DNA from: Octopus vulgaris
Lineage: Eukaryota
DNA length: 64,000 bases
Direction of reading: 5' to 3'
Assembly (NCBI GenBank): GCA_951406725.2
Contig: OX597835.1
Location: 26,722,001 to 26,786,000 of the forward strand
Numbering within the stretch: position 1 is the first letter of the stretch; each line of letters starts with the position of its first letter. The notes under the pieces were generated by a model. It had not been told where the DNA came from. It worked only from the letters and a program-made list of their open reading frames with translations, and searched no databases. The position numbers and the translations under genes were made by a program. This document shows, in pieces, positions 14,776 through 49,699 of the stretch.

Positions 14776-14969
14776 CGATCCCAGTGCTAGACCTTATTTT
14801 ATCGATCCTGGAGGATCGCAAAGGCAGAACTTGAACGATGAAAGTAAAGTAGCGAGTTTCGGATTTAAGCATAAGGCCAATACATACACGCAGGGTGGGA
14901 GGCATATATAATCGATACCATGGGTCCTAGTCCCCGGCTGGCTGGCTGGTACTATATTTTATCGACCTC

Positions 14970-15530
14970 GGAGGGAGTTAAAAATACGAAGAGCATGGTT
15001 AGTGTCGTGGATGCATGAGGGGAGGGAAGCCACTAGGGGGGCAAGGACACGGTCGAGATATTTCGAGATCAATTCCATGAGGCAGTTACAGGCGAAGGCG
15101 ATGGGGCGGTCGGGGTTGTTGAGCTTGTGGATTTGGGGAAGGAAGTAAATGGTGGGGTGCGACGAGTGAAGGCGGTGGGAGGGATACGGGAGGAGATGAG
15201 GTCATGGATAGTGGAGGACACAGTCTGTTGGAAGCTAGGCGTGGGGTTGGAGGGTAGAGGGCAAAAGAAGGAGGTGTCTTGAAGTTGGTGGAGAGCTTCA
15301 GCCTTGTAGGGGTCTGCGCGTCACACCACCACGGCGTCACACCACCACGGCGTCACACCACCACGGCGTCACACCACCACGGCGTCACACCACCACGGCG
15401 TCACACCACCACGGCGTCACACCACCACGGCTCCACCATTGTCGGCCGGTTTTATGATAATGTCTTTGCGGCATCGGAGACATCGAAGGGCGGAGAGTTC
15501 GGCTGGGTAGATGTTCAGATGTCGGGGACA
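14970..15530 (-). mobile_element. Penelope-like element RT N-terminal fossil
   Basis: Translation across frameshifts: AELSALRCLRCRKDIIIKPADNGGAVVV*R ... YKAEALHQLQDTSFF ... PQIHKLNNPDRPIAFACNCLMELISKYLDRVLAPLVASLPSCIHDTNHAL, matching the PLE DKG and PKIHK..P.RPI motifs. Confidence 0.9.
15319..15430. repeat. Seven perfect tandem copies of the 16-bp unit CGTCACACCACCACGG
   Basis: Counted directly; the unit is the reverse complement of the PLE AVVV(W)R codons. Confidence 0.95.
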
Positions 15531-20111: not shown

Positions 20112-21297
20112 TTGAGTCATCCCATAAATAATGCAGATTTTTCAATTGCATGAACTAAAAGTCGGAGTGGCACGGGATAAACTACCTGCATCAACTTGCT
20201 TTGAAAGCAGGTAGTAATTTTACCTTGTGCTTATTCTTAGTGCAAGTTTTGAAGAGTGCAGTTCGATTTTAATAGTTTTTTTTTTCAAAGCTATAATGGA
20301 AGTGAGAAAGGAGTATATTCGGCTTATCTTGCTTTATGAGTTCAATAAAGGCAACAACGCAACGGAAAATGCGAGGAATATTAATGCAGTATATGGGGGG
20401 GGGACAATAAGCGTAAGCCGGTTTTAAGTGTGGTTCCAGAAATTTCTAGCCACGTCCTGGAAGATCTGTGGTGTTCGACGAAGACGTCCTGCAAACCATA
20501 GTGGAACAACATTCAATCGTAGCTGTTGAGGAACTAGCAGAGAAGTTTGAATTTGTTCGTTCAACCATTCATCGACACCTGCGTGCTATCGGAAAAGTCA
20601 GCAAATTGGGTCAATGGGTTCCTCACAAACTTTCTGAGTCTAATCGCGCGCAGTGGGTGAATGTGTGCTTTTCTTTGCTGTTACGTCTCAACAAAGAACT
20701 TTTGGGGAACAAATAACGAATGGTAACGACAAATGGGTTCTCTATAAAAATGTCAAGCAAATAGATAGGGAAAGGAAAAGCACTGGTACCCCAAGCTAAA
20801 GAAGGCCTTCACACACGTAAGGTGTTGCTCTCTGTTTGGTGGGATATGAAAGGTTTTGTCCACTTCGAACTTTTAAACACAGCGCTAGAAGAAAAATGAC
20901 CAACTTTGGTTCCAAGACGAAAGGTGGACTTCCATGCTCGACAACATACAGCGAGGATGACAATCCAAGGGCTGGAGCAGTTTGAATGGGAGACGAGGGC
21001 TCACCCACCATATTCACCGGACATTACCCCATCTGATTATCATTTATTCTGCAGTCTTCAAAATCATTTGGACGGAAAAATTAAGAATTCTGTAGACGAG
21101 ATCAGAACAGTACTGGAGGAGTATTTTTCTTCAGGGACTGGTGAATTTTAGAAAAGGGGTCTTACAATTCGACCAGATATATGGTAGAGCATTGTAGAAA
21201 ATGAAAGAGAGTATGTTTTAGATTAAAAAAAACCAACTTTATCTAAATTTTGAAAACTAAAAGAAGTATAAAAAACCCGCATTCGTTATAGGAAGAC

Positions 21298-22431: not shown

Positions 22432-23720
22432 TTAGCTCATCCCATAAGTTCTGTCCGAATTTTCAATAAAGAAAACAAGTGATCAAATGTTATATTTAAT
22501 TAAAATTCAATCATCAATGTACTTTCCCTGATTATCTATGACTTCCTTCCGTCTATTTACAAGCTTTTTAATCCCATCAATGTAAAACTCTTTTGGTTTC
22601 AAAGCGAAGAACTCTGAAATGTCAGTTTCGACCTCCTCCTGGCTTGCGAAAGTTATGTCCCCCAAACGATTCTGCAAACTACGAAACAAATGGTAGTCTG
22701 AAGGAGCAATATCTAGAGAATAAGGTGGATGAGGAATTTTTCCCAACCAAGCTCTCTTCGATCTTCTGTGATGTGATCTTTGCAGTGTAGGGTCACGCAT
22801 TGTCCTGATGAAACATCACTCCTTTTCGATTCACTAAAGCGGGGCTTTTTTTTCCTTCAAAGCTTGGTTCAAACACTCTAATTACTGAAAGTAGACTTGA
22901 GCATTGATTGTTGCATTAGGTGGTAACAATTCAAAAGTGAATTACTCCTTTGCAATCCCACCAGATAGAGAGAAGAACCTTTTTCTCCATGAAATTCCCT
23001 TCTCGGTTGTGGTTGAACTTTTTCCCTTTTACCAAGACATTGTTTTCAACGTTTAACATTTCGATAGAAGATCCATTATTCGTTATCAGTCACAAGTCTA
23101 TCCAAAAAGGGTGAAATAAGTTCGCGAGAATGGAGAGAAGAGCAGATGTCAACTCGGGAATTGCGGTTGCTTTCGGACAATTCATGAGACACCCATTTTC
23201 CAAGTTTAGGAACCTTTCCAAGTTGTTGAAGATGACGACAGACAATTGTATGGTTTGAACTAAGCTTTATTGCCAATTCTTCAACTGATAATGCAGGATT
23301 TTCTTCAAGTAATGCCCCAAGGAGCTTATCATCAAACTCAACTGGACGTCCTGTTCGAGCTTCATCTTCAAGGCTGAAATCTCCACTTCTGAATTTTGCA
23401 AACCATCTTCTGCAAATTCTTTCATTCAAGCATTCTTTCCCATAAACTGAGTGTATGTTTCGAGTCGCATCGGCTGCAGAGTTTCCTTTTTTGTACTCAT
23501 AAAGCATTATTTGCCTCAAATGCTCTTTGGATACTTCCATGTTAGAAAGGGTTTTAATCAAAGATATTTTAATTCTATTATTCTGTAAAATAATATTTAA
23601 TTTGTTTAAATGAACACAAATTCATAAAAATAATTTTCAATTCCATTAGACATTCTAAAATATTAAATTTCATTCAATTTTAAAAAGGTAAAATCTGACA
23701 ACACTTATGGGATGACCTGA
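22432..23720 (-). mobile_element. Full-length decayed mariner element (~1.29 kb)
   Basis: TIRs TTAGCTCATCCCATAAGTTCTGTC / GACAACACTTATGGGATGACCTGA with TA flanks. ORFs 23076-23561 (WVSHEL) and 22507-22800 (HPPYSLDIAPSDYHLFRSLQN) are interrupted by stops. Confidence 0.97.
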
Positions 23721-34149: not shown

Positions 34150-35610
34150 AGATTATATTCCAGTGACATTTTCCACGCTTTTATTCACCTCCAGCTTGGC
34201 ATAAGAATCGATTAGCTCAGTTTTCTCTCTACTCTCACGACCTTTGCAAACAAAAAGCTTCGCAGATAGGAAAAATTTTATGATTCTCGGGAAAGAGAAG
34301 CTAAAATTTGAAATGAAAATCAAAATAAAAATGGGCAGCAAGGAATGATTCATCGTTCCAAGTATTACGAACAGTATAAGTGAATTGACGATTTGGTTTG
34401 TATTTAAAATTGGATATACATACAAATAAATGATTTGAGGTGGAATTAAGAAGTATAAAAAATCATTATTATGAGTCATTATAGAAAGCCCTACCGGTTT
34501 CATCAGAGCTGATCACTGTCCTTTCCATGCATTTTAAGTAAGGAGGATAAGTTTTTAACTGTCTTTTGTGGGTTATAGTACTTTATCTTCTCATAGTAAG
34601 TATTGCTTTCCAGCATGGAGAGTATTAAATTTTTATAGTACTCTGTATCCATCACTACTACCGCACATCCTTTATCGGCTTCTTTAATGGTCAGGTTTAT
34701 ATCGTTTTTTAACTCGATTAGGTTTTTCCATTCATTTGTGTTGAGGTTGGAATTAATTCGTTGTTTTTATAGGGCATTAAATGGAAAATTGGTAATGTGT
34801 TCCCTAAAGCCATCAAGTGCTTTATTTCTGCCTTTAGCAGGACTGTATTCTCTTTTGTTTTTCCCTATTGAGTCATCTTCGCTGTTGTAGTTATGACGTG
34901 CTTCTATGAGACACAATTTTCGACTATATATGTGGGCGGCATAACTGTGGCACAAGACCCACTTTTTGAATTTTACTTGAGATAAGGTGAAATATTTAAG
35001 ATAAAGTCAAATTTTACTTGTGCCTCTAAAAACTTAATCTATGTTATTACCTGCTTATGTTGCGGAAACCACTATATAACCCAAACACACAAATCCCTCA
35101 AACAAAGAGCAACACTTCACAAAGACCAAATCCGCTTCCCACAATATAGACAGATACAGGTCAGTGAGCACATAGATAGAGGTGCTAGGAACCTTAAACC
35201 AAGCTTCATAATTTTCACTTTTCATCAATGTTCCCAGACAACAAAGATTAAATAAAAAGGCAACTTTCGTTAATATCAACCACAACTTAACATGAACACA
35301 CAACTTAATACACGACACTACTAACCTCACTAATACCAACAATCCCGCTAATCCTCATACATCCCATATACCATTCATATTCGAGTAATAATATCTACCT
35401 TAATTGCATCACCTTCAGAACTACTTACCTCCCTTGCATGTAATCTTTTCACTCAGTTACTATCAGACCTAACAGCGTTTGGAAATCGGTGTTCATTCAA
35501 AGTCAGTGATCAGCTCTGATGAAACCGGTATGGCTTTCTATAATGACTCATAATAATGATTTTTTATAATTCCTAATTTCACCTCAAATAATTTATTTGT
35601 ATGTATATAT
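34150..35610. mobile_element. Rearranged Penelope-like element: inverted RT fragment, GIY-YIG fragment and inverted terminal repeats
   Basis: Minus 34560-34760: NLNTNEWKNLIELKNDINLTIKEADKGCAVVVMDTEYY. Plus 35030-35290: NLIYVITCLCCGNHYITQTHKSLKQRATLHKDQIRFPQYRQIQVSEHID ... QPQLN. Inverted repeat of ~105 bp at 34414-34518 / 35504-35608. Confidence 0.88.
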
Positions 35611-47556: not shown

Positions 47557-47671
47557 CTATTTTGCAGCTTCGACAGGAAACTCAAACGTGAACGGAGATT
47601 TTCTCGTAGCCGGTGAAGGTGGAAGCGACGGCTCATTTGACGAAGGTGGCATATCCAGTGCTTCCGATAAT
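47557..47671 (-). CDS. Terminal coding exon B of the candidate microprotein: (P)LSEALDMPPSSNEPSLPPSPATRKSPFTFEFPVEAAK*
   Basis: Acceptor TTTTACCTTTTCCCTTCCAG before 47671, TAG at 47559-47557, GT-AG intron 47672-48770. Unique sequence amid microsatellites. Confidence 0.65.
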
Positions 47672-48043
47672 CTGGAAGGGAAAAGGTAAAATGAGAGAGA
47701 CGGAGAGATAGATTGGTAGATACAGACAAAGAGCAAAGGAGGAAAAGTCATGTGATGATGATGATAATGATTTGCGTGTTTTGAGGCAATCAGTATCTTT
47801 TATTTGTTTCAGTCGTTAGACTGCAGCCATCCTGGACCACCACCTTGAGGAATTTCATTTCTCAAATTATTAACTTAATAAATATATATTTATAGACACA
47901 TTCAAACTTAAAAGGAAAAAAACAAGGATCAACATACATAAGAAAACCCATACGCACATGAACACATACAGGCACACACACATGCATACACACACACACA
48001 TACAGGCACACATACATACACACATATTAAGATAATTATATAT

Positions 48044-48102
<59 letters not shown>

Positions 48103-48311
48103 TAGATAGATAGATAGATAGATAGATTAAGATAATTATGAGTTAGAAGATATGCAACCATCTAAGGGATAAATTTATCCAGAGACACTACTGGTGCCCA
48201 AGCTATAAGGTATACAGTAGTTGGTAATTTAAAGGTAAAACCGTGGTTTAATATCTGTGTTTATTGGTCCATTTCTTTTTTTCTCTCTCTCTCTATATAT
48301 ATATATTTACA

Positions 48312-48370
<59 letters not shown>

Positions 48371-48770
48371 ATGTATATATATATATATATATATATATGC
48401 TAGAATGGGAAACTGATGCTAAAGGATAATGACGATGATGATGAGGAGGAGGAAGATAGTGATGATGATGATAGTGATGATGATGATGGTGAGGATAGTG
48501 GTGATGATGGTGGTGGTGATGCTGCTGATGATGATGATATCTATGTGTGCTTCCTTGTGTTTATGTCCCCATAACCTAGCAGTTCATCAAAAGAGACTGA
48601 TAGAAGTACCACGCTTAAAAAACACACACACAACAAAAAAAAAATAAAGAATACCAGGGCTCAATTCATTTGACAAAAAATTCTTCTTCAAGGTGGTGCT
48701 CCAGTATGGCCGCCGTCTAATAACTGAAACAACTGAAAGACAAGAATATAAAAGCCAAAAGAAAACTTAC

Positions 48771-48895
48771 GGTTGGCAGTTTGAGAAATCCTTGTCCTTC
48801 ACCTTCACGGCATCGTGTTGAGCTGCTGGGTCGATCTGTAGAGGTGTGGGTTTGCGCTGACGGTAGCGATTCTCTTGTTCCGTCGTCCCAGACAT
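48771..48895 (-). CDS. Coding part of exon A (whole exon 48771-48907) of a candidate 79-aa microprotein: MSGTTEQENRYRQRKPTPLQIDPAAQHDAVKVKDKDFSNCQ + 2 nt
   Basis: Non-repetitive, CpG-containing island. On the minus strand: acceptor TTTTTCTGTGTATATTGCAG before 48907, donor ACC|GTAAGT after 48771, ATG at 48895 in an ACAATG context. The phase-2 end joins exon B in frame. Confidence 0.65.
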
Positions 48896-49004
48896 TGTGT
48901 TCAATCCCTGCAATATACACAGAAAAATATATAGTTATGTGCATCAGATTTATATACACACATATTTATATATGTAGGTATAAATATATATTTTAAAAAT
49001 TTTA

Positions 49005-49352
49005 TTTTTTTAATTTTATCTAGTTTCAGCTCACAAGCTGTGGTCATGCTGGGGCACCGCCATTTGGTGTTGCTACATGATTTTACTTCACGAATGCATT
49101 TTAGCAATTGCCACTTGGTGCATGAGAGAGTTCGATGCAGCTGCCCTCATCTGCACCTCCTGCCGTGAAGTTGGTTCATCTGGGACACCAGACAGGAAGA
49201 GATCCAGTTTTATTTTAAAGACATCTGTATCCAACCCATTCAGGTCTCTCAGGTTCTTCGGGAGGATATTGAAGAGCTGTGGGCCTCTGAAGCCCAGGCT
49301 ATCACAGTATCTTGTCCTACATCTTGATGGCAAATTTGGAGTCCTTGGCACC
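49005..49352 (-). mobile_element. 5'-truncated LINE 3' end (CR1-like ORF2 C-terminus plus 3'UTR)
   Basis: SLGFRGPQLFNILPKNLRDL..FKIKLDLFLSGVPDEP..RAAASNSL; 3'UTR GGCGGTGCCCCAGCATGACCACAGCTTGTGAGCTGAAACTAGATAAAAT. A solo tail lies at 62631-62690 (+). Confidence 0.85.
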
Positions 49353-49699
49353 ATATATATAAACAGGTATAAAAAGACAAAAAATAAATAAGGGATCAAA
49401 TTGATTTATAACGAGTCTACATAACGGGCATGGCTGCATTGATTAGGCATAGGTGTGCAGTACAAAATTTGCTTCCCAAACACATGGTTCTGGGTTCAGG
49501 TTCCACTGTGTGGTACTTTTATTCAACATATTCCCTTCTCAGATTCACACACTTATTGCAGCGGTCCTTCATTTTTTTCTCCAACCAGGCCTTTCACGAC
49601 ACCCATAAAGCCAGCATCTTTCTCAGTACCTCCTCGTACATATATGCATATATATATATAGAGAGAGAGAGAACAAAGTGTACGTACGCCGCTATATAT

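Follow-up and report, generated by a model that had tools for sequence, protein, structure and literature searches.

Does a pair of short exons on the minus strand of an Octopus vulgaris contig form a gene of its own, and what could a protein of only 79 amino acids do in the cell? The exons lie in a window of 64,000 nt, the whole stretch of DNA that was analyzed, which covers positions 26722001-26786000 of contig OX597835.1 (G000:C22, below C22) in a genome of 2.8 Gb. Positions without a contig name refer to the window. The original prediction had described the product as a hidden microprotein built almost entirely of docking and phosphorylation motifs for ERK, a mitogen-activated protein kinase (MAPK). 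Our analysis indicates that the locus is almost certainly a real, stand-alone small gene. As the best reading of its product we predict an ERK-docking regulator, in a family that would link ERK to the phosphatase PP2A-B56 and in which the copy in the window would be an ERK-only binder; we give this reading about an even chance. New beyond the original prediction are a sister gene, an invariant GSK3-type serine ladder, and a B56-type LxxIxE motif in the relatives. Papers are cited by their PubMed Central (PMC) numbers.

Structure of the Window Gene

Exon A (48771..48907, minus strand) comprises 137 nt, a 12-nt leader followed by codons 1-42, and has the same boundaries and phase in the sister gene. 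It is flanked by a TTGCAG acceptor upstream and a GTAAGT donor in phase 2 downstream. The GT-AG intron (47672..48770, minus strand; 1,099 nt, phase 2) consists of simple repeats and pieces resembling short interspersed nuclear elements and has stops in all frames. The coding part of exon B (47557..47671, minus strand; 115 nt) follows an acceptor with a strong pyrimidine tract and extends from the last base of codon 42 to a TAG stop, with the 3' untranslated region continuing toward lower coordinates. Joining both exons in frame gave the predicted 79-residue peptide letter for letter, with the ATG at 48895 and with all motif residue numbers reproduced. The splice signals, which had been called strong, were good to strong by a crude score of our own making: the donor ranked 167th of 4175 GT dinucleotides, the acceptor of exon A was in the top 204 and that of exon B in the top 7 of 2832 AG dinucleotides. 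Since exon A has its own TTGCAG acceptor, an upstream exon, which is likely non-coding, is implied.

The DNA of exon A had a single match in the genome. The product was identical to protein P0001 (NCBI CAI9738980.1, 'Hypothetical predicted protein [Octopus vulgaris]'), and the gene is thus not hidden but annotated already, though unnamed. This record was possibly made from the same assembly and is not independent support. The start ATG (48893..48895, minus strand; MSGTT...) is also the start of the NCBI model. Codon 5, an ACG for Thr (48881..48883, minus strand), sits where seven relatives carry the Met of MEQ. From this alignment, the ancestral MEQ start of the window copy appears to have been lost, and an in-frame ATG four codons upstream to have taken over. 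The apparent start-codon turnover at 48881-48895 could also reflect an assembly error.

A Sister Gene and Selection on the Reading Frame

A protein search of the genome identified a second copy of the gene on the opposite strand, with exons at C22:26669109-26669221 and 26681580-26681688; the stops of the two genes are 88 kb apart. The intron of the sister gene has 12.4 kb and interrupts the same codon in the same phase 2 as in the window gene. Its product is P0005 (CAI9738979.1). A further search of this genome found no third copy, only the two genes.

We compared the two genes over 72 aligned codons. The proportion of differing synonymous sites (pS) was 0.90, which is saturated, versus 0.29 for nonsynonymous sites (pN). 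Mismatches numbered 23, 18, and 51 at codon positions 1, 2, and 3, and the codon had changed at 26 of the 40 identical residues. The 79-residue frame was thus under purifying selection, as would be expected of a ratio of nonsynonymous to synonymous change below 1. Both shifted frames contained stops in the same comparison. The alternative open frame, which the original prediction had kept as a possible competitor, is therefore refuted, as it is broken by stops in the paralog and selection acts on the 79-residue frame.

No shared upstream exon or promoter of the two genes could be distinguished from repeats within 214 kb. Both genes are flanked by an inverted repeat pair of 384 nt (C22:26813011-26813394 and 26612769-26613152) with 96.6% identity and a distance of 200 kb, which is likely a young mobile element.

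Stand-Alone Protein or End of a Longer One

The two exons might be the last exons of a longer, already known protein, or an artefact. In the window copy the frame of exon A is open to its 5' end, with an acceptor before it, which fits such an origin. In the sister gene, an in-frame TAG lies three codons before the ATG, inside the exon. Between the acceptor and the start position that both copies share lie 24 nt in the window copy and 32 nt in the sister gene, and because of this difference of 8 nt no coding frame is conserved upstream. With the exception of one read-through form, the relatives are 73-86 residues long and start at MEQ or slightly before it; this is true for NCBI models of two species as well as for proteins from the Logan collection. 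When exon A was searched against 1.84 billion representatives without an index, three matches resulted, P0002 (73 amino acids), P0003, and P0004. P0003 and P0004 are repeat proteins that match over 18-23 residues only and were dropped as relatives. None of the three candidates was a longer relative of exon A, in a search that was insensitive and missed the 86-residue P0006. We found no ETS or kinase domain in the same frame: exon B ends in a stop, and the sister gene has its in-frame stop before the ATG. With selection acting on the 79-residue frame in addition, an origin as tail exons or artefact is extremely unlikely. The idea that a kinase begins in exon A (DF-x5-L register) was rejected; F37 varies in the family, and the conserved partner of exon A is exon B.

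The Protein Family Is So Far Found Only in Octopods

A profile search identified six family proteins among 304 candidates, and a cluster look-up added P0009-P0011. The set consists of two O. vulgaris models, one Argonauta hians model, and six unnamed Logan proteins; alignment, motif counts, and tree cover eight related proteins in two clades. The Logan proteins P0002 (80 contigs), P0008, P0009, P0010, and P0011 start at MEQ, and P0006 has an extension of 13 residues. All six continue across the exon junction on contigs no longer than 2,797 nt (the longest for P0002), which implies that spliced transcripts exist in the relatives. For the window gene, a search of sequencing runs listed no RNA run on record, and 14 runs presumed to be RNA contained 0.23-0.26 of its words, which speaks neither for nor against expression. 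In the tree of the eight proteins, which was midpoint-rooted for drawing only, the sister type (P0005, P0007) was separated from the rest with support of 100/99, and P0001 joined P0002 (99/96). This split and the saturated synonymous sites suggest that the duplication predates the separation of Octopus and Argonauta.

None of the eight proteins matched a Pfam family at the cut-off. The Atlas gave two fungal clusters under 0.8 for P0001 and none for P0011, nothing usable, and of 253 pattern matches in a metagenome scan none was confirmed. No relative carried the name of a squid, cuttlefish, or other mollusc, in searches that were word-limited or used exon A only and thus do not demonstrate absence. 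The motif strings and the two accessions appeared in no paper, and topical searches did not find the family either; subscription papers and supplements were outside their scope, and cephalopod transcriptome tables could carry the family under other identifiers. Disorder of the protein is supported by structure prediction, with an AlphaFold predicted template modeling score of 0.17, a sole helix at residues 43-47, and a local confidence (pLDDT) of 0.25 in the Atlas. The original prediction had recognized neither a folded domain nor a named family, and this still holds.

P0001 and its closest relative P0002 differ in only 1 of 37 residues in exon A and in many at residues 48-56 of exon B, where two residues have also been inserted. 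The fast change is local (47629-47655) and lies right after the LxxIxE motif, which is decayed in the window copy. P0009 (6 contigs) corresponds to P0011 extended by 91 residues, with the stop replaced by Trp. The stop of the window gene (47557-47559) is TAG, and one A-to-G change would give Trp and a read-through as in P0009. P0010 and P0011 differ by Glu/Gly, and R65 (AGA in the window) is Gly in five relatives. Judged from the sequences, these three changes are compatible with A-to-I editing or plain substitution.

Putative MAPK Docking Motifs and the Predicted Phospho-Acceptor Site S61

The putative D-site RQRKPTPLQI (residues 12-21; 48833..48862, minus strand) has the form [RK]QRKPxPLxI in all eight proteins, with a 2-spacing and a proline-rich, MEK1/DCC-like composition. 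The loose consensus for D-motifs is basic-x(0-5)-phiL-x2-phiA-x-phiB, and the polyproline 2-spacing DCC class mainly binds ERK2 (PMC4670726). The family fits this loose consensus and has the prolines of the greater DCC class, in a disordered region, in eight of eight proteins. The putative F-site FTFEFP (residues 69-74; 47575..47592, minus strand), a docking site of the DEF or FxFP type, lies 10 residues after S61 and follows a second invariant FxF. For ERK2, FxFP has been defined as the F-site motif (PMC4459106, PMC8786283); PMC8786283 likewise defines F-site and B56 motifs. In all eight proteins F-[ED]-F-P follows 9-10 residues C-terminal of the PxSP serine, the layout of an F-site substrate. 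PxSP and FxFP were invariant throughout, which supports the view that PPSP places S61 in an ERK consensus with FEFP (71-74) ten residues further on.

In total, 36 columns were invariant among the eight proteins. All 12 motif-defining positions (R14, K15, P16, P18, L19, I21; P59, S61, P62; F71, F73, P74) belonged to them, versus 24 of 59 other core columns (Fisher p 1e-4). When only P/F/L/I/V/M residues were considered, 9/9 motif positions were invariant versus 4/16 others (p 3.5e-4). The wildcard positions 17, 20, 60, and 72 all varied. These tests used six related rows, the positions follow the motifs named before, and the list was fixed after the alignment had been seen. KPTPLQI, PPSP, and FxFP thus behaved as conserved blocks, as had been anticipated. 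The D-site, then PxS/TP, then FxFP occurred in this order in 1, 1, and 0 of 200,000 shuffles of three family proteins, with patterns that we wrote after seeing the sequence; the loose D-motif alone occurred in 28-44% of shuffles.

Other parts of the motif description had to be given up. The motifs cover 22 of 79 residues, and the description as 'almost entirely' motifs was too strong. S67-P68, proposed as a second SP site, is kept in six of the eight proteins and absent from both sister-type proteins; it was rejected. An LRP6-like PPSPxT was dropped because T64 is not conserved.

Nine sequences of solved structures matched P0001 at E values up to 10, and all nine were MEK1 N-termini, with non-significant E values of 3.6-10. 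Taken together, we predict that the 79-residue protein very probably docks on a MAPK, and that ERK is probably this partner.

A GSK3-Type Ladder and a PP2A-B56-Type Motif

The proline-directed S61 in PxSP is preceded by invariant serines at i-4 and i-8, resulting in S53-x3-S57-x-P-x-S61-P (47611..47640, minus strand). S53, S57, and S61 were invariant in eight of eight proteins and agree, by sequence, with the S/T-x3-S/T ladder of primed GSK3 sites. Alone, the ladder pattern occurred in 1-4% of shuffles. This pattern is found in GSK3 substrates for which ERK or JNK does the priming, among them Smad4, Bcl-3, and Mcl-1 (PMC5954166). The ladder spacing is preserved in the window copy in spite of changes in residues 48-56, a segment that has grown by two positions.

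Just upstream of the ladder, six of the eight proteins, the sister and relatives, have LSEILE[ST]xS. The PP2A-B56 consensus is [LMFI]xx[ILV]xE with acidic or phosphorylatable residues at positions 2, 7, 8, and 9, and a phosphate at position 9 raises the affinity for B56 (PMC10970375). The six proteins agree with this consensus and have S/T at positions 2, 7, and 9; position 9 is the first serine of the ladder. LSTIDESGS of Cyk4 (PMC10970375) resembles the family motif. The fuller B56 pattern occurred in 0.4-0.8% of shuffles. A count of 0/100,000 for LxxIxE abutting the ladder was not considered, as this pattern was fitted to the data. Matches to the B56 family were present on two contigs of this genome.

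The window copy P0001 has LSEALD at this place (residues 43-48; 47653..47670, minus strand), a decayed counterpart of LSEILE with a short predicted helix at 43-47, and P0002 has LSEALE; both deviate from [LMFI]xx[ILV]xE. The exchange of Ile to Ala at this position abolishes efficient co-purification of B56 with KIF4A (PMC7108865). The sequences suggest that the PP2A-B56 hook has decayed in the window copy, while the ERK elements and the ladder were kept. Binding of B56 by the sister protein is tentatively predicted, at somewhat less than even chances. Because of the sister gene, the ladder, and the LxxIxE motif, the reading of the family shifts from a plain decoy, one of the roles first proposed beside feedback inhibitor and mini-scaffold, toward a kinase-phosphatase adaptor.

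Model of the Complex with ERK

ERK of this genome is split into exons, and for this reason a full-length animal ERK from a metagenome contig (L035) was used as a stand-in in unphosphorylated form. The complex with the 79-residue protein reached a score of 0.67 (median of three runs), compared to 0.00 for the best of three controls. The score mark of the tool was reached by 51 of 78 solved versus 2 of 108 mismatched microbial pairs, and in eukaryotes by 71 of 105 solved pairs (39 of 65 without a like complex) versus 2 of 126 unrelated pairs. A score above the mark does not discriminate between the members of a protein family. The runs agreed in at least 23% of the contacts, with a partner pLDDT of at least 40. 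Confident contacts involved partner residues 9-11 and 14-23. On the ERK side they map to rat L113, T116-S120, D122-Y126, L155-C159, and Y314-D319, residues that are listed as D-recruitment site in PMC4459106. All 23 contact residues were identical in the ERK exons of this genome. The F-site residues were outside the confident contacts; the ERK chain was unphosphorylated, and residues not listed count as uncertain. Among the seven F-site residues named in PMC8789800, six were identical in the ERK exons of this genome and the seventh was not covered. The model places the D-site in the D groove of ERK, which shows likeness, not binding.

The ERK1/2 gene of this genome is located at C1:104199158-104215273, with its exons in L110, L112, and L119. 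A second TEY kinase exon (L018; C10:70458484-70468573) belongs to a kinase that we take to be ERK7-like. Three MAPK-like kinases with long and apparently intronless frames are clustered on C10 (83395514-83476884).

Other Features in the Window

A fragment of a mariner/Mos1-type transposase (Pfam HTH_48, E 3.5e-22) is present at 23076-23621 on the minus strand. We assume that 20450-21151 (plus strand) and 22507-22815 (minus strand) are fragments of the same type. The short frames 49014-49405, 34503-35255, and 14959-15320, none of which had a Pfam match, are presumably pieces of decayed retroelements. The invariant blocks EQENRY (residues 6-11; 48864-48880) and KxKDxDxSN (residues 31-39; 48776-48805) of the window gene had no matched motif; residues 9-11, within the first block, contact ERK in the complex model.

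Discussion

How could such a protein act? In the proposed mechanism the D-site would dock on ERK in either activity state, and FxFP would add grip once ERK is active. The F pocket of ERK forms on activation (PMC4459106). Docked ERK would phosphorylate S61, and GSK3 would then phosphorylate S57 and S53. In the sister or ancestral form, LSEILES/T just upstream of the ladder would recruit PP2A-B56, and the phosphate on the last ladder serine, at motif position 9, would strengthen this binding. ERK activity would in this way call in a phosphatase beside docked ERK, a self-resetting feedback timer. The window copy, without the B56 hook, would be a bivalent ERK-only binder that competes with MEK, phosphatases, and substrates for both grooves. 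These partners share the ERK grooves (PMC8789800). Such a binder would alter the duration and place of the ERK signal, and both damping and prolonging are conceivable. The sign of the effect is not readable from the sequence because ORF45, which is discussed below, inhibits in vitro yet activates in cells. That the protein regulates ERK rather than being a pure substrate is predicted with chances that we consider balanced. In a bolder version octopods would have evolved and then duplicated a 73-residue element made up of D-site, B56 hook, GSK3 ladder, phospho-site, and F-site, and the lineage of P0001 and P0002 would have shed the hook, giving a two-gene push-pull timer of ERK. ERK and GSK3 would then jointly switch on the recruitment of the phosphatase to ERK, and the hookless duplicate would be the opposing, ERK-shielding partner. 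We regard this version as speculative and rather unlikely.

Several observations weigh against an ERK-docking regulator. The alignment is a small sample of related proteins. The bare LxxIxE core occurred in 17-19% of shuffles, and the key Ile and Glu of the motif are variable in the family, in contrast to L43, S44, E45, and L47, which are invariant. A plain LxxxL helix fits these invariant residues equally well. The basic patch upstream of the B56-type motif is weak, with K31 and K33 among aspartates. A profile of the eight sequences did not recover MEK1 from the solved structures. In the MEK pattern K/R-X-K/R (PMC12550783) the first place is taken by a basic residue, and in the octopus D-site this place is the invariant Q13. 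The core K-P-x-x-L-x-I also fits the short-linker JIP1 (JNK) class (PMC4670726). The complex tool was never calibrated on disordered chains or peptides and did not use alignments, and memory of solved D-peptide/ERK complexes may be behind the pass. A motif scan, for which no background was computed, found no immediate-early signature that stood out upstream or in the 3' flank. Finally, 23 of the 36 invariant columns fall outside the motifs first described (EQENRY, KxKDxDxSNxxPL), and an unrecognized partner may be the main function.

This last point also favors a protein that acts downstream of ERK without regulating it: ERK, and then GSK3, would phosphorylate the protein, which would act on a third partner, for example by competitive inhibition of PP2A-B56 or via the conserved middle block, or would be degraded via the ladder. 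Elk-1 and other ordinary, efficient substrates have this arrangement of D-site, PxSP, and FxFP (PMC4459106). In Smad4, Bcl-3, and Myc, GSK3 ladders primed by ERK act as degrons (PMC5954166), and IEX-1, itself a substrate of ERK, inactivates B56-PP2A and lengthens ERK signaling (PMC6404175). However, the octopus protein has no folded or catalytic part, and the window copy has lost the only recognizable effector motif yet keeps all ERK elements. We consider such a phospho-switch possible but on balance unlikely. The partner could also be p38 or JNK instead of ERK, in view of the JIP1-class geometry of the core, of the many DCC-class motifs that bind p38 too (PMC4670726), and of a complex model that does not single out a family member. 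JIP1 motifs favor Ser/Thr before phi-A, while the octopus family has an invariant Pro, as does the ERK2-binding polyproline DCC class, and FxFP is described as an ERK2 motif; another MAPK as partner is therefore clearly unlikely. If, on the other hand, the conserved residues of a real small protein were unrelated to MAPKs, the motifs would be look-alikes. Conservation is spread along the whole chain, the loose D-motif is frequent in shuffles, and simple pattern matching yields many false D-motifs (PMC4670726). This explanation is very unlikely, since the three motifs in the right order and spacing were found in at most 1 of 200,000 shuffles, variation within the motifs is confined to wildcard positions, and the model picks the D groove with controls at 0.00.

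The preferred reading, an ERK-docking regulator, can be compared to known systems. The C-terminal region of Elk-1/TCF (D-site, PRS389P, FQFP) has the same motif order and similar spacing. PRSP...FDFP of the sister protein parallels P387-R-S389-P...F395QFP of Elk-1, with the Phe residues 7 and 9 residues from the serine in the sister and 6 in Elk-1 (PMC4459106). In contrast to Elk-1, the octopus protein has no ETS DNA-binding domain, the module is the whole protein, and no homology was found. To the N-terminal D-site of MEK1 (KKKPTPIQLNP), which it had been said to mirror, P0001 aligns on KPTP-x-Q-x-x-P, and it was modeled in the same groove. The likeness stands insofar as P0001 matches MEK1 N-termini only; it fails insofar as this match is not significant, is lost with the family profile, and has Gln for the first basic residue, and only MEK1 has a kinase domain. 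From the sequences, convergence and borrowing are not distinguishable.

IER3/IEX-1, a vertebrate early gene product that we take to carry an FxF-type ERK docking site, is presumably about twice as long as the octopus protein and has a hydrophobic segment. No homology to it was detected (Pfam blank in 8/8, no match in the other searches), and the window copy lacks an intact B56 motif. As an ERK substrate IEX-1 binds B56 of PP2A and so sets the length of the ERK signal (PMC6404175, a review); the octopus family would resemble it in joining ERK and B56. ORF45(16-76) of Kaposi's sarcoma-associated herpesvirus (KSHV) is also a non-catalytic stretch of linear motifs. Through its FxFP it binds active ERK2 and protects the kinase from MKP3, which results in inhibition in vitro and activation in cells (PMC8789800). 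ORF45 differs in being viral; its second motif binds RSK, which supplies the D-motif in the complex. ENSA/ARPP19 and inhibitor-1/DARPP-32 are small and disordered and transmit the signal of a kinase to a phosphatase, with other kinases and phosphatases involved and no Pfam match of the octopus proteins to them. PEA-15 has a folded domain. As is predicted for the octopus protein, it is a small adaptor that engages both ERK docking surfaces, and it does so without a canonical D- or F-site (PMC4459106). By sequence, the octopus protein belongs to none of these systems.

The ERK docking system is ancient. A layout of little more than D-site, acceptor, and F-site, here in a free-standing cellular protein, is known mainly from the tails of transcription factors, from one viral protein, and from engineered reporters. 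The two sister proteins, with the same ERK elements and one with and one without the B56 motif, are a natural experiment, and at 73-79 residues both can be produced and assayed with standard ERK, GSK3, and B56 reagents. If the predicted binding is true, an uncharacterized, lineage-restricted cephalopod gene would gain a concrete role, one that can be tested at low cost, in the pathway that underlies learning, growth, and regeneration.

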